Assembly: GCA_965204205.1 (NCBI GenBank)
Contig: OZ241976.1
Span: forward strand, 2,922,322-2,986,321
Length of the DNA stretch: 64,000 nt
Reading direction: 5' to 3'
From: an uncultured Candidatus Binatia bacterium
Lineage (GTDB): Bacteria; Desulfobacterota; Binatia; UBA9968; JAJDTQ01
Both the position numbers and the translations under genes were made by a program. Positions 1,015 to 64,000 of the stretch are shown piece by piece. Each line of letters begins with the position of its first letter. Positions within the stretch are counted from its first letter, which is position 1. A model generated the notes under the pieces. The model worked only from the letters and a program-made list of their open reading frames with translations, did not search any database and was not told where the DNA came from.

Positions 1015-2649
1015 TCAGGACTGGGTGCCGGGAATTCTGAGGCGCTGGCCGGCCCGGATCCGGTGTTTGTTGCGAATCGCATTGGCGCGCTGGATCGCGG
1101 CCGGGGACACCCGGTAGCGGTCGGCGATGGTGGAAAGGGTCTCGCCCCGGCGCACGAGGTGATAGATCCGCTGTCTCTTCACTACCCTCTTCTTCGCACG
1201 GCTCGCGAACGACCTGTCCGGGATCGCCAGCCGCTGGCCCACCTGCAGACGCCGGACACTCACCAGATCGTTCACCGCCTGGATGGCCCGCGCCGATATG
1301 CCGTAGTTCCTGGCAATGTCCCACAGCGTGTCGCCGCGGCTGACTACGTGGTACGAATCCCTGCCCGGACGCGGGCGCTCCACGACCCTGGCCGGCCGCC
1401 GATTGGCCGGCGCGGCGGCGGACCGATCGGCCAACGACTTGCCCGGGATCTCGAGCCGCTGCCCCACGCGCAGCCGGTGGGCGCTCCTCAAGCCGTTGAC
1501 GGACTGTAGCGCGTGGGTCGATGTCCCGTAGATCTTGGCAAGCTCGGAGAGCGTATCGCCGCGGCTGACCACGTGGTAGGGAAACGTCGGCGTCGGACCC
1601 ATGTTCGACAACGCGGTACGAAACCGGTGACCCTGCTCCTTCGGCGCCTTCAACCGGTAGCCCTTGGGCAGCCACGCGGCGTGCCGGCTCAGCGCCGGGT
1701 TCCACCGGAGCAACTGTGCCCGGGAGACCCGGCTGCGACGGAGCAGCGAAGCCACCGACACGCGCTGGTGGAGGCTGATCTCATCGAAATGCACGAGCCG
1801 ATCGAAACGGACGTGGGGCAGGTGCCGCTCGACCTCGCGCATGACATGCACCGCCGCCAGAAACTCCGCGTAGAAGTTCTTGGACGCGAACTTGAAGGTA
1901 CGACTGCGATAGCGGCGGATAATGGTGACGATGTCCCGGGTCCCCACCTGGCGCACCGCCCGCTTCATGCCGGCGCGCCCGTGGTTGTAGGCAGTGACCG
2001 CGAGCGGCCAGGTCTTGAGCTCCCGGTAGTTTTCCTGCAGCAGACGGGCGGCGGCGCGGGTCGCCTCCATCGGATCCCTGCGCTCGTCCAGGAGCCGCGT
2101 CACCCGCATGTACCTCCGCCCGGTGTAAGGCATGAACTGCCACATGCCCACGGCGCCGCGGAACGAGCGCGCGTCGTTCCTGAACGAGGACTCCACCAAC
2201 GGCAGGTAGGCCAGCTCCACCGGGAGACCGCGGGCGGAGAAGATCTTCCGCATGTGCTCCATGTAGCGCCCGGACCGCCTCACGCCCGCCGCGAAACGCT
2301 CGCTGATCCCCCGCTGGACCTTGATGCGGTGCGACGGGATTCCGCGCCGCACGAGTTGCGCGCGCACGGAGCGGATCACCCGCCGTGTGCGCGCCCGGGA
2401 ACCCTCCTTGACCTCCACCACCCGATGTATCTTCGACATCTCCCTGGGATCGAAGAACACCAGCTCGTTCGAGTCGTAATCGAGAAAGATCGCCTTCCAG
2501 AACTCGACGGCGGGCTTGAGCCCTCTGGGGATGGGGAAGGGGTCCTCGGCCGCCGGAACGGTGCCGCGTGCGAGTGCGGCCGGGGTGTACGTCAAGCCGC
2601 TTAAAAGGAGAAAAAGAAGACTGGCGACGACGACGAAGCAGCGTGTCAT
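1015..2649 (-). CDS. mltD: membrane-bound lytic murein transglycosylase D-like protein with three C-terminal LysM domains
   Basis: Signal peptide MTRCFVVVASLLFLLLSGL at the internal ATG (rc cat 2647-2649). SLT core with catalytic ES motif (LPLVESSFRNDARS, AYNHG). Three repeats of YH(V/L)V(S/R)RG(D/E)TL...GQRL.IP typical of LysM. The ORF-track N-terminal extension was rejected. Confidence 0.8.
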   Translation of the reverse strand: MTRCFVVVASLLFLLLSGLTYTPAALARGTVPAAEDPFPIPRGLKPAVEFWKAIFLDYDSNELVFFDPREMSKIHRVVEVKEGSRARTRRVIRSVRAQLVRRGIPSHRIKVQRGISERFAAGVRRSGRYMEHMRKIFSARGLPVELAYLPLVESSFRNDARSFRGAVGMWQFMPYTGRRYMRVTRLLDERRDPMEATRAAARLLQENYRELKTWPLAVTAYNHGRAGMKRAVRQVGTRDIVTIIRRYRSRTFKFASKNFYAEFLAAVHVMREVERHLPHVRFDRLVHFDEISLHQRVSVASLLRRSRVSRAQLLRWNPALSRHAAWLPKGYRLKAPKEQGHRFRTALSNMGPTPTFPYHVVSRGDTLSELAKIYGTSTHALQSVNGLRSAHRLRVGQRLEIPGKSLADRSAAAPANRRPARVVERPRPGRDSYHVVSRGDTLWDIARNYGISARAIQAVNDLVSVRRLQVGQRLAIPDRSFASRAKKRVVKRQRIYHLVRRGETLSTIADRYRVSPAAIQRANAIRNKHRIRAGQRLRIPGTQS

Positions 2650-2819
2650 GCAGAACTCCTTTAAAAGCATCGGCTTAGGGTACCCGGTGTAAAGCTCTTT
2701 GTCAACTATGCCGTATACCTTTCGGAAAAGACGTCCTGCAGGGGTCACACTCGACGTAACCACCATGGGAGGGGAGAACAGCCTTCGGACAGGAGCGGGG
2801 CTCCAACGCCCGGGGGAAC

Positions 2820-3455
2820 CTAATCGAACTCGTAGGGTATCTGCTCGGGCCCGTACCCTTGCCAGTACTTGCAGGTCCGCGGGTCGTATCGGCCCTGGAG
2901 GAAGCCGCCGGGCTTCTCGGCGCGCACGATGATGGCGACCGTGCGCTCCGTGCCGCTCTCCTCCGCGTGGATCTGCCAGGGACCCACGAGGTCGATCTTG
3001 CCCGGCTCCACCTGGGCGTTCTCGATCTTTCGGATTTCCGCGTAGTCCGGCTTCGAACCGTCGTCCAGCCGTTCATAACGCTCGATGGTCTCACGGCCGT
3101 CCAGTACTCCGTACAGCGTCCAGTTGTGCGCGTGGTCATGGATGCTGGTGCGGGTTCCCGGCGCCTTGACCAGGCCGTTGATCACGAATCCGTGGTCCGG
3201 GTCCTCGTAGAGGAGCAGGTTCTGCGCCCGTTGGCCGCCCTCGGCCACGGTCAGCCCGCCCTGGTCGCAGTCGGGCCATTTCCCGGCCTGCGCCTTCACG
3301 TCGGGGTCCGTCAGCAACTCTGCCAGAAGGGGCCCCATCTTCTGCCAGCGCTTGTCGGCGTCCGGCTCGTCTTCATGAAGTTGCCGGGCGGCCGCGATGA
3401 ACCGCTTGGCGGCCGACGGCTCCGTTTCGCGGGCCGGCATGGGACGTGCGCTCAT
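2820..3455 (-). CDS. cupin-fold protein, 3-His (cysteine-dioxygenase-like) metal site
   Basis: ORF with IHDHAHNW ... GPWQIHAEES spacing reminiscent of 3-His cupin dioxygenases. Start chosen at MSARPMP. Family assignment is tentative. Confidence 0.45.
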   Translation of the reverse strand: MSARPMPARETEPSAAKRFIAAARQLHEDEPDADKRWQKMGPLLAELLTDPDVKAQAGKWPDCDQGGLTVAEGGQRAQNLLLYEDPDHGFVINGLVKAPGTRTSIHDHAHNWTLYGVLDGRETIERYERLDDGSKPDYAEIRKIENAQVEPGKIDLVGPWQIHAEESGTERTVAIIVRAEKPGGFLQGRYDPRTCKYWQGYGPEQIPYEFD

Positions 3456-3539
3456 GGTGTTTCCTCCCTTGGCTCCTTGGTGGCTTGCGTGGACGGGGTC
3501 GCCCAACTCGTGGAAAGTATCCGAGGAAACGACGCCCTG

Positions 3540-4466
3540 TCAACCGGATACGACACCCTTGACCAGCCGCACCCGGCTGGTGTCGCGCAGCTTGTCGAAG
3601 CGCTCCCGCTCCACCTCGAAGTAGTGGGGCAGCGCCGAGCTCTTGAGGATATAGTGATCGCCTTCTTTCGGGGACACCACCGTGTACGTGACCGCGGACC
3701 CCGCCTTCGTCTCGATGACGTACTCGAGGATGGGCCTTCCGGCGTCGAAACGGGCCTTGCCGTCCTTGGACAGCACATCGTTGAAACCGACTCCGGCCAC
3801 GCGCTCCACCAATTCCTTCACGGGCCCGGCGTCGGTTTCCTCGTTCTCCCGCAACCCTTCGACCTGGAACCCGCCGTCCCCGGCCGTGAGCGCATAGGAC
3901 CCCAGGTCGATGCGGGCGATGTCCTCCACCGCCGTCTTCAGGACCTCCGTGTCGTACCACGAGTCTGCATCCGACGGAGCGTCGAAGGCGTTGAAATCGA
4001 TGGCGTAGGTGTGCTCGTCGCCGTCGAGGCGGGCGTGCACCTTGCGAAAGCCGGGCGATGAGCCGAGGAAAACGTCGCCGAGGACGTCCTTCCCCTTGAG
4101 GAACCGCACCCGCCGCTCGAAGTCCACCTCGGTGACCCTCAACTGCCGGGCCGCCACCAGGGTCTTTCCCACCGGCCAGGAGCGCTTGGCGCCGAGCAGC
4201 TTGCCGGTGAACTCCTCGAACTTCGTCGACGAGACCGGAAAGTCGCCCTTGCCGGGCAGAACCCAGCCGCCGTCCCTGCGCGCCAGCCGCAACGCCGCTT
4301 TCCGCATGCCCTCGATGGTCACGGCGTCGGCGCTGTCCAGTTCCACGGCCAGCAAAGGGGTATCCGCCTCGAAGGCGCCGGGGTCGTCTCCCTGGAAGTT
4401 GACCCAGGCCACCAGTCCCGCCTGCAGCACCAACACCAGCAACAAGAGCTTGATCGATCGACTCAC
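3540..4466 (-). CDS. DUF4340-family protein, the usual partner of GldG-type ABC transporter auxiliary proteins
   Basis: N-terminal TM/signal (MSRSIKLLLLVLVLQAGLVAW). Position immediately downstream of the fused permease/GldG gene matches the conserved GldA-GldF-GldG-DUF4340 gene order. Confidence 0.6.
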   Translation of the reverse strand: MSRSIKLLLLVLVLQAGLVAWVNFQGDDPGAFEADTPLLAVELDSADAVTIEGMRKAALRLARRDGGWVLPGKGDFPVSSTKFEEFTGKLLGAKRSWPVGKTLVAARQLRVTEVDFERRVRFLKGKDVLGDVFLGSSPGFRKVHARLDGDEHTYAIDFNAFDAPSDADSWYDTEVLKTAVEDIARIDLGSYALTAGDGGFQVEGLRENEETDAGPVKELVERVAGVGFNDVLSKDGKARFDAGRPILEYVIETKAGSAVTYTVVSPKEGDHYILKSSALPHYFEVERERFDKLRDTSRVRLVKGVVSG

Positions 4467-4536
4467 GCGGAAAACCTCTTCGTTCCGGAAGCCCTGTCCG
4501 CTTCCCGCCGCTCTCTCAAGGGAGAGGCGCCAGGCG

Positions 4537-7440
4537 TCAGGCCGCCAGCATCCCGTGGTAACGGTCCCGGAGGCGGCGCAGATGAAAACGGTGGACGCCG
4601 TAGATCAACGCCAGGCCCACCAGGACGATGCCGTAGTTCAGATACTCCCAGGAGGCCTTCTGCTCGCGCGTCATGGGCGCCAGCGTCCGGGCGAAGTGGG
4701 CGCGGCTCCGGATGGACAGCAGCGCGCGGTCCTCCAGCGCCCAGTCCACGACGTTCTCCAGGAACTGCAGGGAGTTGACGAACCGGTCGTTGTTGGCCGC
4801 ACGGGACAACTGCAGCGTCTGGTCGGTGAACGCTTCATTGGAGCCGACGAGAATGATGCGGGCCGATTCCGGCGACTTCTCGATCATGCCCGCCACCACC
4901 GGCTCCTCTTTCTCTTCCGTCTTCTCCGCCGCCTCGCCACCTTCCGGCGGGTCCGGTTTCTCTTCGCCTCCGTCCTTGGCCAGCAACGGCGAATCCTTGC
5001 CCGCGTAGTAGGAACGGAACGTCCCTTCCACCACCGCCGCCAGCACGTGCCCCTTCGGTTGGCCCTCCTTCTCGAACCCCAGCTTGGGATCGACCTTGAA
5101 GTCGGGATGAACCTTGAGGGAGCTCGACAGCCACGACGCCTCCGAGCTCGTGAGCAGCGGCGTGGTCCGGGTGCCGCCGGCTTCGTCCTCGGGAAGCGCG
5201 AGCGGCGAAGTCCAGCTCACGGTCAACTGGGGCAGCCTGGCGGTCATGGGATTGTCCTGATTGAGGCCCTCGCCCCGGATGTCGACGAAGTAGGGGTACG
5301 GCACCAACTGCAGCTCCCGGACGGTGAAGGCGCCGGCCTTCCGGTTCACGAACACCGGGAAAGGCTCGTTCCGGGGATCCAGCACCAGGGTCTTGCGGAC
5401 CGTGACGCCGTAGTGCTCCAGCAACGGCTCGAGACCGGAGGTATGCCGGGCGGCGGTCAGGCCCGCGGGGGTGCGCGACACGGTATAGGGCGAGGTCAGC
5501 AGGGCCGCGGAGCCGCCCTTCATGAGAAACTGGTCCACGGCGAAGCGCTGCTTCGGCGTCAGCTCCTTCGGAGCCGCCAGCAACAGCAGGTCCACGTTCT
5601 CCGGCACCAGACCCGACTCGAGGTCCACCTCCGCGATGCGATAGTTCTGCCCCAGCTTCTGCCGCACGAACCGGAACTGCCGGGGCGGCGGCCGGAAACG
5701 CGCTCCCGGTTGCCGCGGCTCCGGCGGCGGGGTGTGGAAACCGACGGTCTTGATGAATCCCGGGGCGAACCTGCGGAGCGCCGATTCCACGCTCCGCCTG
5801 GCGGATTCCTGGTTCAGCTTGCCGGGCAGGGGCACCTGCACGGTGCTGCCGTTGTTCTTCATGACCATGTAGAAAAAGAAACGTTTCGGATCGAAGGGAC
5901 CCGCCGCCATGGGGCGGAAGCCGTACCGGTCGGCGAGCTGCTTGGCCACTGCGGCGCCCTCGGCCTCGGGATCGATGATCTCGTACTTGAACTTCCCCTC
6001 CGACTCCTTGCGGAGCTCCCTCAGCGTCACCAGCAACTGCCGCCGGAACGGCGCGATGGACTTCGGCAGCTTCTCTTTCGGCGAGACGTACGCCAGGAAC
6101 TCCACGGGCTGATCGATGCCGGCGAACAGCGCGCCGATGTCCTGGAATCCATAGAGCACCTTCTTGATGCCGCGGGCGAGGTCGTACTCGAGGTTCCGCA
6201 GCCGGATGTTGGTCCCCGTACGACCGCTCTTGACCTCGATCAGATCCGTGAAGCGCAGCACCTCGTGCTTGTCGCCGTACTGGAGCAGCAGGTCGAAGTA
6301 CGAGTTGACCAGCGAGGTCTGGTAACGGTCTTCGGTGCGGAAGGGGATCGGACGGATGCCGTAGCGCTGGTTGGCTTCCTCCTCGAGACCGGGCTCCTCC
6401 CGGGGATCCACGAACTCCGCGCGCACGCGGCCGCCGCTGGTGGATTCGATTTCGCGAATGGTGTCGCGGATCCGGGGAACCAGCGGGGCCAGCAACGGAT
6501 GGGTGCGGGCGCTGAAGTAGCCGCGGATGAGCAGCGGCTCCTGCAACTGGGCGACGAGGTCGCGGGTCGCCTGGGAAAGGGTGTAGTCCCTGCCCTCGGT
6601 GAGGTCCGCGCGCACGTTGAGTCCGCGGTGGAGCCAGAAGTTGGCCAGCACGAAATTGAGCACCACCAGCGCGGTCACCGCCCGCCAGACGCGGTGGCGC
6701 GTCTTCTGCCCCTCCCGCGACCACCGCAGCCGTTCGAGGGAGTAGACGTTCAAGGCCAGAAAGACGCCGACCACGCTGACGTAGTAGTAGATGTCCCGAA
6801 GGTCCAACACGCCCCGGGTAATGGACTCGAAGCGCACACCGGTGGCCGCCAGCCCCAGGTATTCGGCCCACTGGACGCCCACCAGGAACCCGAACGTCAG
6901 GGAGCCCAGCAGGTAGAACACGAAGCCGATGACGGTGGTGAGGATGAGGCTCGCGATCTGGCTCTCGTTCCGCGAGCTGACGTAGAGGCCGATGGAGCAG
7001 TAGGCCGCCGCCAGCAGCAGGGACGCGGTGTAGGCGCCCAGCACCGGGCCCCAGTCGAGGCCGCCCATGAACGAGACCGTAACCGGGATCCCCACCGTCA
7101 GCAGCAGCGCCACCGCCACCAGGCCCAGACACGCCAGGAACTTGCCCAGCACCAGGTGGAGCGTCCTGACCGGCATGGTGAAGAGAAACTCGAGGGTCTC
7201 CATGCGCCGTTCTTCGCTCCACATCTTCATGGTCAGGGCCGCGCTCAGGAAGATGAGAAGGATCGGCATCCACTCGAACAACGGCCTCACGTCGACGATA
7301 TTGCGCGCGAAGAACTGCTCGACCCAAAAGAAGATGAACAGGCACACGGCCGAAAACGTCCCCAGGAAGATGAACGCCACCGGCGACGAGAAGTAGGTGG
7401 AGAACTCCTTTTTCGTGATGCTCCAGATGCTACCCGGCAT
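4537..7440 (-). CDS. fused ABC-2 family permease (GldF-like) and GldG-like ABC transporter auxiliary component, 967 aa
   Basis: N-terminal ~250 aa are a 6-TM ABC-2 permease. The remainder is a large extracytoplasmic GldG-type domain with a terminal TM anchor. The gene overlaps the upstream ATPase gene by 11 nt. Confidence 0.75.
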   Translation of the reverse strand: MPGSIWSITKKEFSTYFSSPVAFIFLGTFSAVCLFIFFWVEQFFARNIVDVRPLFEWMPILLIFLSAALTMKMWSEERRMETLEFLFTMPVRTLHLVLGKFLACLGLVAVALLLTVGIPVTVSFMGGLDWGPVLGAYTASLLLAAAYCSIGLYVSSRNESQIASLILTTVIGFVFYLLGSLTFGFLVGVQWAEYLGLAATGVRFESITRGVLDLRDIYYYVSVVGVFLALNVYSLERLRWSREGQKTRHRVWRAVTALVVLNFVLANFWLHRGLNVRADLTEGRDYTLSQATRDLVAQLQEPLLIRGYFSARTHPLLAPLVPRIRDTIREIESTSGGRVRAEFVDPREEPGLEEEANQRYGIRPIPFRTEDRYQTSLVNSYFDLLLQYGDKHEVLRFTDLIEVKSGRTGTNIRLRNLEYDLARGIKKVLYGFQDIGALFAGIDQPVEFLAYVSPKEKLPKSIAPFRRQLLVTLRELRKESEGKFKYEIIDPEAEGAAVAKQLADRYGFRPMAAGPFDPKRFFFYMVMKNNGSTVQVPLPGKLNQESARRSVESALRRFAPGFIKTVGFHTPPPEPRQPGARFRPPPRQFRFVRQKLGQNYRIAEVDLESGLVPENVDLLLLAAPKELTPKQRFAVDQFLMKGGSAALLTSPYTVSRTPAGLTAARHTSGLEPLLEHYGVTVRKTLVLDPRNEPFPVFVNRKAGAFTVRELQLVPYPYFVDIRGEGLNQDNPMTARLPQLTVSWTSPLALPEDEAGGTRTTPLLTSSEASWLSSSLKVHPDFKVDPKLGFEKEGQPKGHVLAAVVEGTFRSYYAGKDSPLLAKDGGEEKPDPPEGGEAAEKTEEKEEPVVAGMIEKSPESARIILVGSNEAFTDQTLQLSRAANNDRFVNSLQFLENVVDWALEDRALLSIRSRAHFARTLAPMTREQKASWEYLNYGIVLVGLALIYGVHRFHLRRLRDRYHGMLAA

Positions 7441-36159: not shown

Positions 36160-37068
36160 ATGGGAAATCTCGGCATCTGCTTCGTCAATCCGGCCCCGCA
36201 CATCGAACCGGGTTACGTCACGGACATGGCGCGGAAGTGCGACCAGGCCGGCTTGCACTCGTTCTGGACCATCGATCGCATCGCCTATGACAACCTGGAA
36301 GCGCTGACCGTGCTGGCGGCCGCGGCTGCCGCCACCGAGCGCATCCGGCTGGGAACGTCGGTGCTGCTGTCGGCGCTGCGCCACCCCGCGCTGCTGGCCA
36401 AGACCGTGGCCACCATCGACTTCCTGTCCAACGGCAGGATGACCCTGGGCATCGGCTTCGGCAGCCGGGAGAGCGACTTCACCTCCGTGGAGGTGCCCTG
36501 GGAGCACCGCGGGAGCCGCGCCGAGGAGTCTCTGGCGCTCATGAAGCGGCTCTGGACCGAGGAGGAAGTGGAGCACCACGGCCGGTTCTTCGACCTCCAC
36601 AGCACCCGCTTCGGGCCGGCGACCGTGCAGTCGCCCCACCCTCCCATCTGGATGGGCGGCGGCGCCGAACCCGTCCTGAAGCGCGTGGGGCGGTACGCCG
36701 ACGGCTACATCTGCGGCAGCAACGCGGTGCACGACTTCGATGCGGTGTGGGAGAAGATCAGCGGCCATGCCCGGGCCGCGGGCAGGAATCCGGACGACAT
36801 CGAGAAGGCCGGGCTCACGTTCATCGCCATCGACGACGACAAGGGCAAGGCGGTGGAGGCGTGCGAGAACTACCTCATCCGCTACTACGGCAAGGTCCGC
36901 ATGGACGTGGAAAAGTACATGCTGGTGGGCAGCGCCGACGCGTGCGCCGACGGCATCAACCGGATCTTCTCGGGCGGACTGCAGACGCTGATCATTGGCC
37001 TGGCCATCTCCGACCTGGCGCAACTGGATACGTTCGCGGAGAAGGTGCTGCCGCAGGTGCAGGGGTAG
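36160..37068 (+). CDS. LLM-class (luciferase-like) flavin/F420-dependent oxidoreductase
   Basis: TIM-barrel LLM motifs (HSFWTIDRIAYDNLE, MTLGIGFGS). Start at MGNLGICF (atg 36160). Confidence 0.8.
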   Translation: MGNLGICFVNPAPHIEPGYVTDMARKCDQAGLHSFWTIDRIAYDNLEALTVLAAAAAATERIRLGTSVLLSALRHPALLAKTVATIDFLSNGRMTLGIGFGSRESDFTSVEVPWEHRGSRAEESLALMKRLWTEEEVEHHGRFFDLHSTRFGPATVQSPHPPIWMGGGAEPVLKRVGRYADGYICGSNAVHDFDAVWEKISGHARAAGRNPDDIEKAGLTFIAIDDDKGKAVEACENYLIRYYGKVRMDVEKYMLVGSADACADGINRIFSGGLQTLIIGLAISDLAQLDTFAEKVLPQVQG

Positions 37069-37102
37069 GGGTAGGGCGCCTGCGTGATGGTGTAACGCCG
37101 CT

Positions 37103-37133
37103 GGGCGACCGGCGACCGGCGGGTCGCCCCTAC
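37103..37133. repeat. REP-like palindrome copy (with internal GCGACCG duplication)
   Basis: GGGCGACCGGCGACCGGCGGGTCGCCCCTAC between the convergent LLM gene and leuD. Confidence 0.5.
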
Positions 37134-37162
37134 AAAATACCGCCAGCGATTGGGCAGAAAGC

Positions 37163-37783
37163 CTACAACGGCGCGGGGTCCTCGAAGTTCTTGGTGTAGG
37201 GCAGCTTGCCCGCGGTCTTGTCGACCTCGGACATGTTGCCCAGGAGCAGCGCGGTGGAGTCCCACGAGCCCGTGGTCAGGGCGTTGCGGTGGCCGTCGCT
37301 GATGTCGAGGTCCATTTCGCTGCCGTCGGGCAGGCGGATCTTCCTGGCGTCGAGATCCACCGTGAGCTCCACCTGCGGATCGGATTCCGCCAGCGTCATC
37401 AGCGTCCCGATATCCTCGGACGAGACCATCACGGTGGGCATGCCCAGCAGCACGCTGCTACCGGCGAAGATGGGGCCGAAGGACTCGCCGATGATGACCC
37501 GGATGCCCCAGCGGTAGAGGGCCTGCGGGGCGTGCTCCCGCGACGAGCCGCAGCCGAAGTTGCGGTTCACCAGCAGCACCTCGGCGCCCTGGAAGCGGGC
37601 CTCGTTGAAGGGATGGTCCACGGGCTTGCCGCCGGAATCATAGCGTTCGTCGATGAACGGATACTCGCCCATGCGGCTGAAGGTGATCTCCTTGAGATAA
37701 CGGGCGGGAACGATCCGATCGGTGTCGATATCGTGTCCCCGCACGACCACGGCCCTGCCGCTTACCTGCCTGATCTCGCTCAT
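37163..37783 (-). CDS. leuD: 3-isopropylmalate dehydratase small subunit
   Basis: LeuD swivel domain. Start MSEIRQVSGRAVVV (rc cat 37781-37783) with GAGG 8 nt upstream. Confidence 0.9.
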   Translation of the reverse strand: MSEIRQVSGRAVVVRGHDIDTDRIVPARYLKEITFSRMGEYPFIDERYDSGGKPVDHPFNEARFQGAEVLLVNRNFGCGSSREHAPQALYRWGIRVIIGESFGPIFAGSSVLLGMPTVMVSSEDIGTLMTLAESDPQVELTVDLDARKIRLPDGSEMDLDISDGHRNALTTGSWDSTALLLGNMSEVDKTAGKLPYTKNFEDPAPL

Positions 37784-37798
37784 TCCGACCTCGTTGAG

Positions 37799-37955
37799 TG
37801 TTGCGTTCCACGAATACGTCGACGAATCTGCTGGTCCTTCTCGCCGTCGGCCGCGTTGCTCCTCCTCGCGTGGTACCGGCCACTGCTCGTCGTCGCGCCT
37901 TGCCGACGACAAGAAGTCCTGCGCATCTTCATCAACGTATTCGTGGAACGCAACA
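37799..37955. mobile_element. 157-bp MITE-like element, copy 1 (termini TGT...ACA, flanks TGAG / CTAG)
   Basis: Terminal inverted repeats TGTTGCGTTCCACGAATACGT / ACGTATTCGTGGAACGCAACA. Conserved about 90-bp core shared with copies at 45712-45868 (inverted) and 62881-63037. It fills the leuC-leuD spacer. Confidence 0.7.
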
Positions 37956-39353
37956 CTAGTTGTAATCCCGCACGTCCACGACCTTGCCGTTGAGCGCGGC
38001 CGCGGCCACCATGGCCGGACTCATCAGCAGCGTCCGCCCCTCCGGGCTCCCCTGGCGGCCGATGAAGTTCCGGTTCGACGATGAAGCGCACACCTCCCGG
38101 CCCTGGAGCTTGTCGGGGTTCATGGCCAGACACATGGAGCAGCCTGCCTCCCGCCACTGAAAGCCGGCCTCGGTGAAGACCCGGTCGAGCCCAGCCGCCT
38201 CCGCCTGCTTCTTCACTTCGACGGACCCGGGGACCACCAGGGCCCGCACGCCGGAGGACACCTGCCGCCCCTTGGCGACGCGCGCCGCGGCCACCAGGTC
38301 CGAAAACCGCGAGTTGGTGCAGGAACCGATGAATGCCACGTCGATGGGAGTGCCGAGGATCGGCGCCCCCGGCGTCCAGCCCATGTGCTGGTAGGCCTTC
38401 TCCACGGTCTGGGGATCCTTCAGGTCCTCGGGGCGGGGCATGTTCTCCAGCACGCCCAACGCCTGGCCGGGATTGATGCCCCAGGTGACCGTGGGCTCGA
38501 TGGCCGAGCCGTCGATGTCCACGACATCGTCATAGCCGGCGTCCGGATCCGACGCCATCGAGCGCCAGTACGCCGCCGCGCGGTCGAAGGCCTCGCCCTT
38601 GGGCGCGAACGGCCGTCCCAACAGGTACTCGAAGGTGGTGTCGTCGGGGTTGACGTAACCCACCAGGGCGCCGCCCTCGATGCTCATGTTGCAGACGGTC
38701 ATGCGCTCGTCCATGTTCATGGCATCCAGCACCGCGCCGCCGTATTCGTAGGCGAACCCCTTGCCGCCACCGACCCCGAGAGTCCGGATGATGGTCAGGA
38801 TCACGTCCTTGGCGTGCACCCCGAGGGGGAGGCTGCCGTTGACGTTGATGCGCCGCACGTCGAGCCGGTCCATGGACAGCGTCTGGGTCGCCAGCACGTC
38901 ACGCACCTGGCTGGTGCCGATGCCGAAGGCCAGCGTCCCGAAAGCTCCGTGGGTGCTCGTGTGGCTGTCGCCGCAGGCCAGGGTCATTCCCGGCTGGGTC
39001 AGGCCGAGCTGCGGGCCGATGACGTGCACGATGCCCTGGCGGTCGCTTCCCAGGCCGTAGAACTCGATGTCGAAGTCACGGACGTTCTTCTCCAGCGCCG
39101 CCATCATCGCCTCGGCCTGCTCGTCGGCGAAGGGCCGCACCTGGGTATCGGTGGGGATGATGTGATCGGCGGTGGCGAAGGTCCGCTGCGGATAGGCGAT
39201 GGAGAGCCCGCGCTCCCGCATCATGTCGAATGCCTGCGGGGTCGTGACCTCGTGGACCAGGTGCAATCCGATGAAGAGCTGGGTCTGGCCGGTGGGCAAC
39301 GTCGTCACCGCGTGGCTGTCCCAGACCTTGTCATAGAGCGTACGTTCGGACAT
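37956..39353 (-). CDS. leuC: 3-isopropylmalate dehydratase large subunit
   Basis: Aconitase-family Fe-S cluster Cys motifs. 465 aa. TAG stop codon lies inside the CTAG flank of MITE copy 1. Confidence 0.9.
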
Positions 39354-39407
39354 GGATACGTTCTCTCCTTGGCCGGAAGTTATAGCCAGCGACCTGCGCT
39401 AATTCAA

Positions 39408-39546
39408 GCGTCCTTCGACTTCGCTCCGCTACGCTCAGGACGAACGGTGGTGGAACCCGTAGCTCCGGGCGAGTGGCTCGTGTAAGACCACGACTCCGTT
39501 CGTCCTGAGCGTAGCGCCGCGTTAGCGGCGCGAAGTCGAAGGACGC
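39408..39546. repeat. nested inverted-repeat intergenic element, copy C
   Basis: Outer arms GCGTCCTTCGACTTCGC / GCGAAGTCGAAGGACGC. Inner arms CTACGCTCAGGACGAACGG / CCGTTCGTCCTGAGCGTAGCG. Longer central loop than the other copies. It lies between truA and leuC. Confidence 0.6.
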
Positions 39547-45062: not shown

Positions 45063-45608
45063 TTACAACCTGGCTACGATGGTTTCCCCGCCGCGAACCC
45101 GCTGGCCAGGGACCACTTCGATCTCGGCATCTTCGGGCAGGTGCAGGTCCACCCGGGAGCCGAACATGATCATGCCGAAACGCTGGCCCTTCTGCAACGA
45201 GTCTCCCGGGCTGACGTAACAGACGATCCGGCGCGCGAGAAAGCCGGCGACCTGCACGATGCGAAGCGTCCTCCCCGCGTCGTCCACGAGCTCCACCGCG
45301 TTGCGCTCGTTCTCCTCCGACGCCTTGCCCTTGTAGGCGGCGAAGAAATGGCCCGCCTGGTAGTTGACGTCGGATACCCGCCCCCGCATGGGCGCCCGGT
45401 TGATGTGTACGTCCAGGGGCGAAAGAAAAATGCTCAACCGGCGCCCGCCGCCGGAGGGCTCGCCCACCTCCACGACCTTGCCGTCCGCCGGCGACACCAC
45501 CACTCCGTCGGCGTCCGGGGGCACCCGCTCCGGGTCGCGGAAAAACCCCGCCACGGCTACGGCCAGCGCCAGCAGCACCGCTCCGGCCACGGCCCAGCCC
45601 ACGGCCAT
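45063..45608 (-). CDS. psd: phosphatidylserine decarboxylase proenzyme (short, archaeal-type)
   Basis: FGS self-cleavage motif (IMFGSRVD). 181 aa. Immediately downstream of pssA. Confidence 0.75.
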   Translation of the reverse strand: MAVGWAVAGAVLLALAVAVAGFFRDPERVPPDADGVVVSPADGKVVEVGEPSGGGRRLSIFLSPLDVHINRAPMRGRVSDVNYQAGHFFAAYKGKASEENERNAVELVDDAGRTLRIVQVAGFLARRIVCYVSPGDSLQKGQRFGMIMFGSRVDLHLPEDAEIEVVPGQRVRGGETIVARL

Positions 45609-45685: not shown

Positions 45686-45711
45686 ACTAGTGTCGCGGGA
45701 CGCGACACTAG
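45686..45711. mobile_element. 17-bp fused-termini footprint (TGTCGCGGGACGCGACA) flanked by CTAG on both sides
   Basis: Its two halves equal the left (TGTCGCG) and right (GGGACGCGACA) ends of MITE copy 3 with the whole interior missing. It shares its right CTAG with MITE copy 2. Confidence 0.4.
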
Positions 45712-45868
45712 TGTGGTGTCTGGTTCATTCGCAGCATAATAGGCGGAGGATTTTTCGTCGTCGGCAAGGCGCGATGACGAGCAGTGGCGGGTACCACGCG
45801 AGGAAGAGCAACGCGGCCGACGGCGAAAAAGACCCGCAGATTATGCTGCGAATTAACCAGACACCACA
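45712..45868. mobile_element. 157-bp MITE-like element, copy 2 (core inverted relative to copies 1 and 3), flanked by CTAG / CTAG
   Basis: TIRs TGTGGTGTCTGGTTCATTCGCAGCATAAT / ATTATGCTGCGAATTAACCAGACACCACA. Core is the reverse complement of the copy 1 core. The right CTAG contains the ilvC TAG stop codon. Confidence 0.7.
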
Positions 45869-46885
45869 CTAGTTCTTGCTCTTGTCCACCAGCCGGTTCT
45901 CCGCCAGCCACGGCATCATCGAGCGGAGCTGCTCGCCCACCTGCTCGATGGGATGGCTGCGCGAAGCCTGGCGCAGCCCGTTGAAGTTGGGCGACCCGGA
46001 GCGGTGCTCGTTCATCCACTCGTCCGCGAACTTGCCCGACTGGATGTCCGACAGGATTTCCTTCATGACCTTCCGCGTATCGTCGTTGACGATGCGCCTC
46101 CCGCGGGTCAAGTCGCCGTACTCCGCGGTGTTGCTGACCGAGTAGCGCATGTTGGCCAGGCCGCCCTCGTAGATCAGGTCGACGATCAGCTTGACCTCGT
46201 GGCAGCACTCGAAATAGGCCATCTCCGGCGGGTAGCCTGCCTCCACCAGGGTCTCGTAGCCCGCCTGGATCAACGACGTGAGGCCGCCGCAGAGCACCGT
46301 CTGCTCGCCGAACAGATCGGTTTCGGTCTCGTCCTTGAAGGTGGTCTCGATGACCGCGGCGCGGGCGCCGCCGATGGCGGCGGCATAGGCCAGTCCCACG
46401 GGCTGGGTGTCCTTGGACGGGTCCTGATGGATAGCCAGCAGGCACGGCACCCCCCGGCCCCGTTCGAACTCGCTCCGCACCAGGTGTCCCGGGCCCTTGG
46501 GGGCCACCATGAAGACGTTGACGTCTTCCGGAGGCACCACGCGTTTGAAGTGGATGTTGAAGCCGTGTCCGAACGCCATGTAGTTTCCGGGCTTCAGGCC
46601 CGGCCGGATATCCTGCTGGTAGACCTCGCCCTGGAGCTCATCGGGCAACAGCACCATGACCACGTCCCCGGCTTCGACCGCCTCCGCCGTCTCCATGACC
46701 GTGAGGCCAGCGTCGGCCGCCTTGGCCCATGAAGCGCTGTCGCGGCGGAGTCCCACGACGACGTCCACGCCGGAGTCGCGCAGGTTGGTGGCGTGCGCGT
46801 GCCCCTGGCTGCCGTAACCGAGCACGGTGACCTTGCGGTCGCGAATACGGCTCAGATCCGCGTCCTGGTCATAGTAGACCTGCAT
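45869..46885 (-). CDS. ilvC: ketol-acid reductoisomerase
   Basis: Class I KARI. N-terminal Rossmann [10 protein letters not shown]. 338 aa. GGGAGG RBS. Confidence 0.9.
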
Positions 46886-61465: not shown

Positions 61466-62824
61466 TCATTGTAGCCGGGGGGACCACGAAGGATGTGTAT
61501 CATTTGCCGTGGAGCCTGTCAAACGTCGCTGACTCTCGCCGTCCCGCCGCATCGTATAGATTCGACGGGATCCGGTGCGGTCCGAGGTAAAGGCGATGAA
61601 CCGGCCGTCCGGCGACCACGACGGATCTTCGTCGTTGTGGCGGTTCGCGGTGATCATGCGATGCTCGCTGCCGTCGGCGCGAATGGTGAATATGTTCATG
61701 ACGCCGTTGGCTCTTCCCGCGAAGGCGATCAGCTCCCCGCTGGGCGACCAGTCGGGCGACTGGTTGTAGTTCCCCTTGAACGTCAGCCGCCGGATCTCCC
61801 CGGTGGCGAGCTCGACGATGTAGATCTGGGGGGACCCATGCCGGTCGGACACGAACGCTATCCTTCGGCCGTCTGGCGACCAGGTGGGAGAGATATCGAT
61901 GCTCGCGTTCCGCGTCAGCCGCTCCACGATGTGGCCCTTGCGGTTCAACAGGTAGAGGTCCTGGTTGGCTTGCCGCTCCAGCGGCGTGGCAAGGTGTCGC
62001 CCGTCCGGTGACCACCGGCCGCGCAGGTTCAACCCGTCGCCGGTGGAGATCGGCGTCTCCCGGTTGGTGGTAAGGTCGAATCCCAGCACCTGTGGCTTGC
62101 CCGTCTTGAAGGAGAGATAGACGAGCCCCTTGCCGTCCGGGGTCCACGACGGAAACAGATTGATGGTGCGGTTGTTGGTGACCTTCTTCTTGTCCGTCCC
62201 GTCCAGATGCGACACGTAAATTTCCTTGAACCGGTCCTTGCCGGTGGACACATAGGCGATCCGGGTATCGAACGAACCTCGAACGCCGGTGAGCTTGAGG
62301 ATGATCTCGTCGACGAAACGATGGGCCATGCGCCGCGCGTCACGGATGTTGCCCCTGTACGTCTTTCCCAGGATAGGCGCCTGCCGGAATACGTCATGCA
62401 GCCAGAACTCGAACGCGACCCCTTCGCCGTCGACCCTGAAGCCGCCCTTGACGAGCCCTTCGGCTCCTATGGTCGCCCAGTCCCGATAGTCGAACTGGCC
62501 GCGCCGGATCCCGGTTCGCTGGGGATGCTCGATGTAGGCGGATCGGTCGATGATCCTGAACCAGCCGGAGCGGTCCAGGTCGTCCGCGATCACGTCGGCG
62601 ATGCGCTCGGAAAGGCGCTCGACGTCGTTGGGAATTCCAAGGTTCTTGAGCGGGGAGACCGCCATCCGGTAACGCTCGGCGCCGGGGCCGACGATCACAC
62701 CCCTGATCTGCGCCTGGACCGCCACCGGGAGCAGCCAGCACAGGATCAGCCCGGCGATGATCCACCGGGTCGCTAGAGGCCGTCCACCGCCCGATCCGCT
62801 GACACGACGCTCAAATGGCGGCAT
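61466..62824 (-). CDS. tolB: Tol-Pal system beta-propeller protein TolB
   Basis: N-terminal TolB domain and WD40-like propeller repeats. Start MPPFERRV (rc cat 62822-62824) with GGAGGA 6 nt upstream. The ORF-track extension into the MITE was rejected. Confidence 0.9.
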   Translation of the reverse strand: MPPFERRVSGSGGGRPLATRWIIAGLILCWLLPVAVQAQIRGVIVGPGAERYRMAVSPLKNLGIPNDVERLSERIADVIADDLDRSGWFRIIDRSAYIEHPQRTGIRRGQFDYRDWATIGAEGLVKGGFRVDGEGVAFEFWLHDVFRQAPILGKTYRGNIRDARRMAHRFVDEIILKLTGVRGSFDTRIAYVSTGKDRFKEIYVSHLDGTDKKKVTNNRTINLFPSWTPDGKGLVYLSFKTGKPQVLGFDLTTNRETPISTGDGLNLRGRWSPDGRHLATPLERQANQDLYLLNRKGHIVERLTRNASIDISPTWSPDGRRIAFVSDRHGSPQIYIVELATGEIRRLTFKGNYNQSPDWSPSGELIAFAGRANGVMNIFTIRADGSEHRMITANRHNDEDPSWSPDGRFIAFTSDRTGSRRIYTMRRDGESQRRLTGSTANDTHPSWSPRLQ

Positions 62825-62880
62825 GTTCCGTCCTCCCATGTTCCAGGAATCCTCTTCTTTCACGTCGAACACCCCACTAG

Positions 62881-63037
62881 TGTCGCGTCCCGCAAATAAG
62901 TGGCATAATTTGCTGGTCTTTTTCGCCGTCGGCTGCGTTGCTCTTCCTCGCGTGGTGCCCGCCACTGCTCGTCATCGCGCCTTGCCGACGACAAAAAATC
63001 CTGCGCAACTTATGCCACTTATTTGCGGGACGCGACA
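62881..63037. mobile_element. 157-bp MITE-like element, copy 3, flanked by CTAG / CTAG
   Basis: TIRs TGTCGCGTCCCGCAAATAAGTGGCATAA / TTATGCCACTTATTTGCGGGACGCGACA. Core collinear with copy 1. The right CTAG contains the TAG stop of the tolA-like gene. Confidence 0.7.
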
Positions 63038-64000
63038 CTAGCCATCCGAAGCGTCGGGCCGGAATTCGATCTCGACGTTCCCGAAGTCACGCGCATAGCG
63101 GGCCGGAGGCGGCGGCAAGCTGCTGGCGCGTACCGCCCGTACCACCGACTCGTCATAGGAAGGGTCCCCCGAGGACTTCAACAGCTTGAGACCGAAGATC
63201 TCCCCGTTGGCCCGAACCCCGAAACCGACGGTCACCTCGAGGTCCGTGCGTTTGCCGATCCAGGTCCAGCGTTCCTTGATCCGGCCGAGCATCTCGTTCC
63301 AATAGATCACGAACTCCCTGTCTCTGACGATGCCGCCGCCCGTGCCTCCGCCCGTGCCCGTACCCTTTGCGACCCGGGCCTCGCGCCGCAACCGGGCTCG
63401 CTCTCTGGCCGTGGCCAAGGCGTCGCCGATACGCCTGTCCTTCAGCCTTCGGACCAGCCGTGGGTCCTTCCCCGGATCGCGCTTGGGCTTCGGTTTCTTG
63501 GCGACCTTCTTGACGAGTTTCTTGGGAGTCTTGCGCGCGGGCTTCTTCCGCTTGACGACCTTCTTCGGCTTGGGTTTCTTGCGCTCGACGACCTTCTTCT
63601 TCGGTTTCTTGGGCTCCTTCTTGACCTTGGCCGGCGGCGCCTCTTTCTTCGGCTTCGGCGGTTCCGGCTTCCGCACGATCTTCTTGGGCGGAACCGGGAC
63701 CTTCTCCGGAGCCTCGACGGTTTCGGGCGGGTCCGGGACGGCGGGCTCGACGGCAACCTCGTCCAACGGATCTTCGTCGAGCGGCGGGAGCGGCTCGACA
63801 GGCAACGGTTCCGGCTCTTGCCGCTTGGGGCTTCGCGGTTCGGGCGGAGGCGCCGGCATGCTCCCCGCCACGAGGTCCACCGTGTACACGGGAATGGGAA
63901 GCTCCCGACGGGCGGTGCTCGACGGCACCACCAGCAACGTCAGGATCAGCACCAGATGAAGAGCGCCGGAAAAGCAGATCCACCATCTCAGCCGGTTGTC
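63038..64000 (-). CDS. TolA/TonB-like protein (partial, 5-prime end beyond the window)
   Basis: N-terminal TM segment, long Pro/Lys-rich periplasmic spacer (PKKPKK repeats), and a C-terminal TolA/TonB-type domain. The reading frame is open to the window edge. Confidence 0.6.
   Translation of the reverse strand, partial: DNRLRWWICFSGALHLVLILTLLVVPSSTARRELPIPVYTVDLVAGSMPAPPPEPRSPKRQEPEPLPVEPLPPLDEDPLDEVAVEPAVPDPPETVEAPEKVPVPPKKIVRKPEPPKPKKEAPPAKVKKEPKKPKKKVVERKKPKPKKVVKRKKPARKTPKKLVKKVAKKPKPKRDPGKDPRLVRRLKDRRIGDALATARERARLRREARVAKGTGTGGGTGGGIVRDREFVIYWNEMLGRIKERWTWIGKRTDLEVTVGFGVRANGEIFGLKLLKSSGDPSYDESVVRAVRASSLPPPPARYARDFGNVEIEFRPDASDG

Follow-up and report, generated by a model that had tools for sequence, protein, structure and literature searches.

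An inverted-repeat element of a CTAG-preferring family at the leuC stop codon of a Candidatus Binatia genome

For the leucine operon of an uncultured Candidatus Binatia bacterium, the unusually long spacer between leuC and leuD is very probably the result of an insertion at the leuC stop codon by a transposable element of the miniature inverted-repeat type (MITE) belonging to a family that prefers CTAG. The insertion is best regarded as a tolerated, near-neutral event that probably left the two genes co-transcribed, and not as a regulatory device. The analysis covered a stretch of 64,000 nucleotides of contig OZ241976.1 (positions 2,922,322 to 2,986,321 of the forward strand; hereafter the window), in which the leuC-leuD spacer spans 37784-37955 (172 bp) and is filled for the most part by an element of 159 bp (37798-37956). 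The arrangement is a typical product of a CTAG-targeting element, most likely tolerated rather than functional, and it is of little consequence for the leu operon itself.

The leuC-leuD junction with and without the element

The element was absent at 16 of the 17 related leuC-leuD loci read (loci are designated by L numbers). Among the empty loci, the two genes overlap by ATGA in L002-L005 (-4 bp), whereas eleven loci have a spacer of 10-11 bp, L120 has one of 21 bp and L117-L119 have one of 37 bp, in agreement with the view of an earlier sequence-only reading of this DNA that the two genes are normally adjacent or overlapping. By its LeuD and LeuC homologues, the window belongs to the uncultured group of the metagenome-assembled genomes (MAGs) that carry the element family; the nearest relatives have a protein identity of only 93% for LeuD and 96% for LeuC, and no record with exactly the LeuD of the window was found. 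The empty site in L001/L121 reads GATTACAAC-TAA-CGAGGTCGGA-ATG (AAC TAA CGAGG), and the filled site in the window reads GATTACAAC-TA(GTGT...ACAC)TCA-ACGAGGTCGGA-ATG. After insertion, the length of LeuC is unchanged (465 aa, as in relatives; close LeuD homologues are all 206 aa), the stop codon is TAG and the 11-nt spacer with its GAGG is intact. The comparison with close relatives lacking the insert, which that reading had suggested as a check, showed the 11-nt spacer of L001/L121 to be identical to the remnant in the window.

The 172-bp gap and the positions of the leuC TAG and the leuD ATG given in the sequence-only reading were borne out by the window sequence, and its proposal that a MITE fills the spacer holds for most of the spacer. 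Some details had to be revised: judged against 78 canonical members of the family, the body measures 159 bp instead of 157 bp, it reaches one base into the leuC stop codon, the G of TAG, instead of lying wholly between the genes, and 14 nt rather than 15 are left before the leuD ATG, 3 of which are the TCA and 11 the sequence ACGAGGTCGGA, with the GAGG retained as had been stated.

The outer arms of the copy between leuC and leuD are 35 nt long and 89% complementary, and a 22-mer from the element terminus was found at both element ends only, with 0 expected in shuffled sequences. The long hairpin that had been anticipated from the nested inverted repeats was recovered by folding, since the minimum free energy predicted for the spacer RNA was -108.7 kcal/mol against -63 +/- 3.7 kcal/mol for shuffled sequences (z = -12.4), and the foot of the stem holds 30 uninterrupted base pairs. 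The better-folding strand of this copy is the minus strand, which is the sense strand of the leu mRNA. No family of Rfam 15 reached its gathering score anywhere in the window, and in 37700-38050 there was no hit even at E <= 10.

A second leu locus with the element was found in L008, a 1.8-kb contig from an independent run (SRR35429252) that begins inside an element of the same sub-lineage and has the same junction to leuD. This contig shares 96-98% identity with L006/L007, which lack the element, and ~92% with the window. The copies of the family do break assemblies, and the termini of several contigs, L008, L037 and L076 among them, fall within one, but a misjoining of the repeat into the leu locus can be practically dismissed, because L008 carries the same element and the same junction at leuD in an independent assembly from another sample; both junctions in the window are also clean, with the expected TA and stop-codon geometry. 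A metagenome scan for the junction between the leuC stop and the element returned 3 chance matches, none of them at leuC.

Some smaller features of these loci were also recorded. An open reading frame (37780-38157, minus strand) spans the whole element and ends in a TGA that overlaps the leuD ATG (ATGA), and it is probably a product of chance in GC-rich DNA. The ATGA at the leuD start corresponds to an ancestral leuC/leuD overlap, as in L002/L003. The longer spacers of L117-L119 (37 bp) and L120 (21 bp) contain tandem duplications of the leuC 3' end (ATTACAACTGAATACA twice; CAACTGA-AT-GCAACTGA), and the sequence GCAACTGAGCGAGG also resembles an element end with its flank (GCAACACTCAGCGAGG); these spacers are explained equally well as remnants of element deletion or as a 10-bp tandem duplication of CAACTGA.

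The element family and its preference for CTAG

A family scan with a 29-nt core motif, with one genome taken per species, gave at least 108 matches in more than 15 MAGs, those listed being labelled (Candidatus) Binatia, Deltaproteobacteria, Thermodesulfobacteriota or Syntrophobacterales; the core was absent from the viral contigs. A BLAST search of the window with the spacer revealed two further copies (45711-45869 and 62880-63038), giving three copies within 64 kb, in which a central block of ~95 nt is 90-93% identical and the arms differ. Canonical copies are 159 bp long, which is too small for a transposase gene, and they start with GTGT, end with ACAC and have a TA on each side (TA-GTGT...ACAC-TA). 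At the tips of the family only GTGTnnnGT is conserved in sequence, corresponding to ~7-10 nt per end. Filled orthologous sites were compared with their empty counterparts in four cases (the window versus L001/L121, L038 versus L043 in both directions, and L042 versus L078), and in each the net gain was the element plus 2 nt. The copy number in related genomes, the terminal inverted repeats, the TA duplication and the filled and empty orthologous sites strongly support the identification of the spacer, already made in the sequence-only reading, as a non-autonomous transposable element of the MITE type, whose family is abundant in Binatia-type genomes and apparently undescribed so far.

In a flank logo of the 70 copies with intact TAs, the base before the left TA was C in 81% and T in 16%, and the base after the right TA was G in 93%. 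The outer flanking bases vary like a target, with CTAG, TTAG, TTAA, CTAC and GTAG all represented. A 4-bp CTAG duplication of the IS5 type was rejected, as the left and right outer bases are often unequal (in ~12 copies, such as TTAG..CTAG and CTAG..CTAC), and a TA duplication fits all copies.

CTAG is far rarer in the window than expected: base composition predicts 202 occurrences and a Markov model 57, but only 23 were counted, and the element junctions account for 6 of these 23. In the genome of the window (GC content of 66%), many of the available CTAG and CTAA sites consist of a sense codon ending in C followed by TAG or TAA. The element supplies the G of the TAG stop of the upstream gene in 32 of 93 copies, while stop codons hold only 6% of non-coding TA, and all three copies in the window sit on a TAG stop (leuC-leuD, ilvC-psd and tolA-like-tolB). 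The repeated landing on stop codons is explained by the rarity of CTAG, much of which is '..C TAG' at gene ends. The layout of stop codon, element and Shine-Dalgarno sequence with ATG was also present in L034, L040, L045, L083, L087 and L114, and the copy in L106 lies in a gene pair that overlaps by ATGA in its empty counterpart L023. The leuC-leuD arrangement had been treated as exceptional but is not, since about one third of the family copies lie on a stop codon and several fill operon junctions in the same way. Copies between co-directional genes (60 of 89) showed no orientation bias (35:25, p = 0.25).

The same orthologous stop site may also be occupied by elements of different arm subfamilies. 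In L045/L052, the left flanks are 95.6% identical and the arms 67% identical, and in L073/L086, again at one stop site, the left flanks are 80% and the arms 53% identical, indicating recurrent, independent insertion at CTAG hot spots.

The insertion of MITEs inside operons is an already known kind of event, as in Chunjie and Correia. Chunjie of Geobacter uraniireducens Rf4 includes a copy inside an operon whose structure was reportedly undisturbed (Chen et al. 2008, Genetics, cited in PMC10969869). That element is like the Binatia family in being small and non-autonomous, with inverted-repeat ends and dozens of copies, one of them within an operon; it differs in having conserved terminal inverted repeats and lengths of 178-235 bp, whereas the Binatia family has a fixed length of 159 bp, an invariant core and hypervariable arms, and the sequences are unrelated. 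The features of the leuC-leuD junction and of the other two copies in the window are collected in Table 1.

Table 1. Coordinates of the leu genes, the element and its parts, and the further family copies with their flanking genes (positions of the window)
Feature	Coordinates	Strand	Remarks
leuC (3-isopropylmalate dehydratase large subunit)	37956..39353	-	465 aa; NCBIfam NF004016 LeuC, 705 bits
leuD (small subunit)	37163..37783	-	206 aa; LeuD model, 188 bits; ATG 37783-37781
leuC stop codon TAG	37956..37958	-	TA (37957-37958) forms one of the two target-duplication copies; G (37956) is element base 1
Element body GTGT...ACAC (MITE)	37798..37956		159 bp; core motif TCCTCGCGTGGT.. on the plus strand
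Outer arm, leuD side	37798..37831		pairs with 37923-37956
Outer arm, leuC side	37923..37956		partner of the 37798-37831 arm
Asymmetric conserved family core, ~68 nt	37843..37910		97% mean pairwise identity, 78 copies, >15 genomes
Degenerate second copy of the TA duplication	37795..37797	-	TCA in mRNA sense; same variant in L008 and the unrelated L106
Original leuC-leuD spacer ACGAGGTCGGA	37784..37794	-	Shine-Dalgarno GAGG 37792-37789; equals the whole L001/L121 spacer
Terminator-like hairpin with T-run	37140..37157	-	directly after leuD; only such site in 37000-39500; probably the leu operon end
Second family copy	45711..45869		opposite orientation; between the ilvC stop (TAG 45871-45869) and psd
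ilvC	45869-46885		flanks the second copy
psd	45063-45608		flanks the second copy, after ilvC
Third family copy	62880..63038		between the TolA/TonB_2-like stop (TAG 63040-63038) and tolB
TonB_2/TolA-like gene	63038-63952		flanks the third copy
tolB (open reading frame)	61466-62965		flanks the third copy, after the TonB_2/TolA-like gene

Expression of leuC and leuD across the element

A single leuC-element-leuD transcript, with leuD started from its own Shine-Dalgarno sequence, is the most likely mode of expression, because the spacer contains no recognisable promoter or terminator, the GAGG has been kept and the predicted hairpin folds independently. No sigma-70-like -35/-10 pair was found on either strand of 37000-39500, with a consensus of the sigma-70 type that may not be that of the host phylum, and neither strand showed a hairpin-plus-U terminator within or beside the element, whose stem is followed by CUCAACGAGG. 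In the predicted fold of 375 nt of the mRNA, the element formed a closed, self-contained hairpin, and the predicted mean unpaired probability of the leuD Shine-Dalgarno region was 0.56 with the element compared to 0.38 after its in silico removal. The sequence-only reading had left leuD to be expressed either from such a transcript or from a promoter inside the element; the former is favoured by these results together with the missing orientation bias, and the internal promoter found no support.

Under the proposed mechanism, the element would have entered the TA of the leuC stop codon at an ancestral site like AAC-TAA-CGAGG, and the insertion would have rebuilt the stop as TAG from the TA and the element's own G, keeping both the 465-aa LeuC and the 11-nt spacer with its ribosome-binding site. 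The three parts would still be carried on one mRNA, in which the self-contained hairpin of ~160 nt would leave no more than ~10 nt between the leuC stop and the leuD Shine-Dalgarno sequence at its base, and leuD would be translated from its own, accessible Shine-Dalgarno sequence. Some translational coupling of leuC and leuD may even survive, a speculation based on the rejoining of stop and Shine-Dalgarno sequence at the stem foot and on the idea that a ribosome ending translation at the TAG would unwind the stem's first turn. The case illustrates that a translationally coupled junction (an ATGA overlap or a spacer of 10-11 nt in relatives) can absorb a hairpin of 160 nt provided that stop codon and Shine-Dalgarno sequence stay intact, as they do because the element targets CTAG, which in a GC-rich genome is mostly 'C TAG' at gene ends.

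For the fate of such an mRNA, the Correia elements (NEMIS) of Neisseria are the best functional model. Correia copies are often co-transcribed with their neighbours, and RNase III cuts the resulting mRNAs at the paired terminal inverted repeats (PMC2229807, PMC10969869); by this analogy, the 30-bp perfect stem at leuC-leuD is a possible RNase III substrate. Correia resembles the Binatia element in its TA duplication and in the long stem formed by its two ends, with a size of ~100-155 bp. It differs in having sequence-conserved terminal inverted repeats of 26 bp, an IHF site and promoter elements, whereas the Binatia element is without a sigma-70-like promoter, belongs to another phylum and shows no similarity to it.

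Conserved core, compensated arms and rival explanations

The family is unusual in three traits, namely a near-invariant core of 68 nt, arms that are hypervariable but complementary, and a strand-asymmetric excess of wobble pairs. Conservation was measured on the 78 canonical copies from more than 15 genomes. The mean identity of the core was 97% (96% outside the 29-mer that had been used for finding the copies), and that of the arms was 65% with a minimum of 40%, there being 64 distinct left arms among the 78 copies. Despite this variability, 96.8% of the arm pairs within a copy were Watson-Crick pairs, as opposed to 66% when arms were paired with those of other copies, and covarying columns were observed (CG 46 / GC 25 / TA 7; GC 45 / AT 32; TA 27 / GC 23 / AT 20). 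The non-Watson-Crick pairs on the strand carrying TCCTCGCGTGGT were 52 A.C and 8 G.T (p = 5e-9), or 21 and 8 when counted as distinct classes of column and type (p = 0.02), and the A.C pairs on this strand are G.U/G.T wobbles on the opposite strand. The opposite strand folds better in 77 of the 78 copies (-101.7 versus -89.0 kcal/mol).

The wobble asymmetry showed no relation to gene orientation, and a replication-strand mutation bias was unsupported as its cause (element orientation versus local GC skew, 54:37). The target logo of the 70 copies is itself slightly asymmetric, with T for C in 16% on the left of the core-'plus' strand and A for G in 3% on the right, and this may be another trace of the strand asymmetry. 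Two other readings of the core were rejected. It is not a second element nested in unrelated palindromes, as the arms can be aligned at each position across all subfamilies (GTGTnnnGT..AAT..CTGC), and it does not encode a peptide (e.g. MTSSGGHHARKSNAADGEKD..), as the ATG is ACG in the leuC-leuD copy and four others and the C-terminus would enter the hypervariable arm.

The search for an autonomous partner with matching ends covered the window and ~125 loci (~0.9 Mb sampled) by regular-expression pairs of the terminal inverted repeats, generic inverted repeats 700-2500 bp apart, multi-copy open reading frames and open reading frames between paired copies, and none was found. No multi-copy or transposase-like open reading frame was detected in the sampled loci; the reading frames between paired copies resemble ordinary host genes in their composition and first 60 residues, no family search having been made on them. 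Transposases of the IS630 family and of the IS427 group of IS5 have TA duplication at CTAG as their signature. RUP of Streptococcus pneumoniae, which like the Binatia family is TA-targeting, gives a precedent, its mobilisation by IS630-Spn1 having been inferred from ends and target (PMC2229807). The CTAG/TA signature of the Binatia family points to the IS630 superfamily or to the IS427 group of IS5 in the same way; for RUP a parent insertion sequence with matching terminal inverted repeats is known, and for the Binatia family none was found in the ~0.9 Mb.

Several observations do not sit easily with a plain, tolerated DDE-type insertion. A DDE mechanism (IS630-type or IS5/IS427-type) is suggested only by the TA/CTAG signature, as no matching transposase was found in the ~0.9 Mb sampled. 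Hypervariable yet complementary arms and strand-asymmetric wobbles are not expected of a double-stranded cut-and-paste element, for which neither a hairpin nor a preferred strand is required. The second TA of the leuC-leuD copy is TCA, and the empty site of the nearest relatives is CTAA and not CTAG. A comparison of the window with L008 gave an identity of 97.5% for the element (3 of 122 positions differ) and of 91.5% for leuD, with 6 differences in the 13 nt before the leuD ATG (the 11-nt spacer and part of the TCA), and this higher identity of the element fits either two recent insertions or a constraint on the element. The TCA end, being shared by L008 and by the unrelated locus L106, which also has the core variants of this copy, looks like a trait of the sub-lineage and not a local mutation. 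One old insertion at the leu site followed by losses is no more likely than two independent insertions, since the re-use of hot spots was demonstrated elsewhere in the family; recent homologous transfer is an unlikely source of the shared element because the flank diverges immediately beyond it.

The stability of the predicted fold with its 30 contiguous base pairs, the high identity of the element between the window and L008, and the coincidence of the better-folding strand with the mRNA sense would also suit a hairpin selected as a regulatory module of the leu operon, acting as an RNase III or stability site, as a barrier to 3'-exonucleases or as an attenuator of the LeuC:LeuD ratio. The REP sequence between malE and malF of E. 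coli (~35 nt) is a stable palindrome that is co-transcribed and stabilises the upstream mRNA segment, leading to unequal expression, and like the leuC-leuD element it is a stable extragenic palindrome between operon genes. Such an effect is not needed for LeuCD; LeuC and LeuD act as a 1:1 heterodimer, so unequal expression would be without obvious benefit. The element is missing from nearly all related loci, including the close sisters of L008, the same family occurs at hundreds of unrelated loci in both orientations, the stem is not followed by a U-tract, and the core is conserved family-wide and not just at leuC-leuD, which makes a selected leu module improbable. An outward promoter in the element, from which leuD would be transcribed independently of leuC, is more improbable still. 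Promoter elements have been reported in some MITEs such as Correia (PMC2229807, PMC10969869), and CATAAT/GATAAT-like hexamers occur in the arms of many copies, but these AT-rich hexamers face inward, vary among subfamilies (TACCGAT, GACAAAT) and are without a -35 partner; in addition, the scan described above for sigma-70-type pairs, a consensus that may not cover the uncharacterised promoters of this phylum, was negative, and the copies show no orientation bias toward downstream genes.

A stronger, though still doubtful, competitor to the tolerated DDE-type insertion is that the family is not a DDE-type MITE and that the hairpin is moved or selected as one strand, either as single-stranded DNA (Y1/HUH; REPIN/RAYT, IS200/IS605) or as RNA, in which case the apparent TA duplication would consist of one target TA and one TA borne by the element. 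The compensated but divergent arms, the number of distinct arms, the excess of wobbles on one strand that is explained by neither gene orientation nor local GC skew, and the better folding of the minus strand in almost every copy all suit this idea, as does the odd TCA end at two loci (window/L008 and L106), which would be expected if the end belonged to the element. Compensatory changes are known in REPINs too, whose compensated hairpins are thought to act and move as single-stranded DNA (PMC3116915). REPINs and the Binatia family are both symmetric hairpin repeats of ~100-160 nt that are extragenic and in which compensatory changes keep the hairpin, and the covarying pairs and the pairing within copies place the family with REPINs in this respect. 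In other respects the two part: REPINs have conserved ends, a variable spacer, no target duplication, a conserved GTAG-type tetranucleotide that belongs to the element at the hairpin foot and a linked single-copy RAYT gene, whereas the Binatia family has target-like outer bases, a gain of 2 nt beyond the element that fits a classical TA duplication, short conserved ends, an invariant asymmetric core, and neither a Y1 transposase nor a RAYT beside any sampled copy; its orientation is also not tied to the sign of the GC skew, unlike IS200/IS605 insertions. The single-strand explanation was kept with a low weight, because a cut-and-paste element needs neither hairpin nor strand preference, while REPINs differ in duplication and ends. 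If it were true, which we rate as a minority possibility, the family, instead of deriving in the ordinary way from an insertion sequence by deletion, would be a replicator or host-recruited module selected as one specific strand, with a ~160-nt hairpin, a freely evolving but compensated stem and an invariant asymmetric apical core of ~68 nt. The core would then be the functional part and could serve as the recognition site of a mobilisation machinery that acts on single-stranded DNA or is RNA-guided, or it could be a small structured RNA spread to the 3' ends of hundreds of Binatia genes, and the leu transcript would carry a well-folding RNA, since the folding strand is the mRNA strand at leuC-leuD.

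Under the preferred explanation of a tolerated insertion, the interest of the case lies in the family, which is very abundant and apparently previously undescribed in an uncultured phylum (Binatia/Binatota). Its copies break assemblies and create TAG stops, which matters for the annotation of MAGs, and the natural series of filled, empty and re-used sites is useful for studying CTAG-targeted insertion. An invariant core combined with compensated arms and with wobbles biased to one strand gives a hint that some 'MITEs' may persist through a single-stranded intermediate or as RNAs.

Several further repeats were observed in the window and in the same genomes. At 45688-45710, a 19-nt 'stump' (TA-GTGTCGCGGGACGCGACAC-TA) retains nothing but the terminal 8 bp from both arms of the GTGTCGCG subfamily, and its right TA is common to the adjoining full copy. 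Comparable stumps or tandem junctions are present in L014 (CTAGTGTCCTGACACTAG), L048, L062 and L081, and they may be remnants of hairpin deletion or of excision. An extra insert in the otherwise invariant core (CTGAGCGTAGCGAAGCGGAGTCGAAGGAC or a longer form) was found in L013, L014, L051 and L070 (29 nt), in L042 and L064 (53 nt) and in L069, and the motif CTGAGCGTAGCGAAGCGGAGTCGAAGGAC also occurs in tandem arrays elsewhere in these genomes (L100 at ~4600-6200; L085); it is a repeat family of its own that sits inside the first. Further short palindromes are repeated in the same genomes (L062 at 506-1374, L070 at 4037-5106, L096 at 1879-3514, and L052 just past the element), examples being GTAGGGGCGGGTTTCAAACCCGCCC, which is REP-like with a GTAG head, and CCCTCTCCCTCTGGGAGAGGGTTGGGGTGAGGG. 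In L131 (JGI Ga0307373_10148341), which comes from another metagenome, an unrelated hairpin element on the minus strand at ~990-1230 has similar ends (CTAGTGTAGTGTTACTAACGG ... CGGTAACACTATACTAG), and TA-GTGT termini may mark a wider group of elements.

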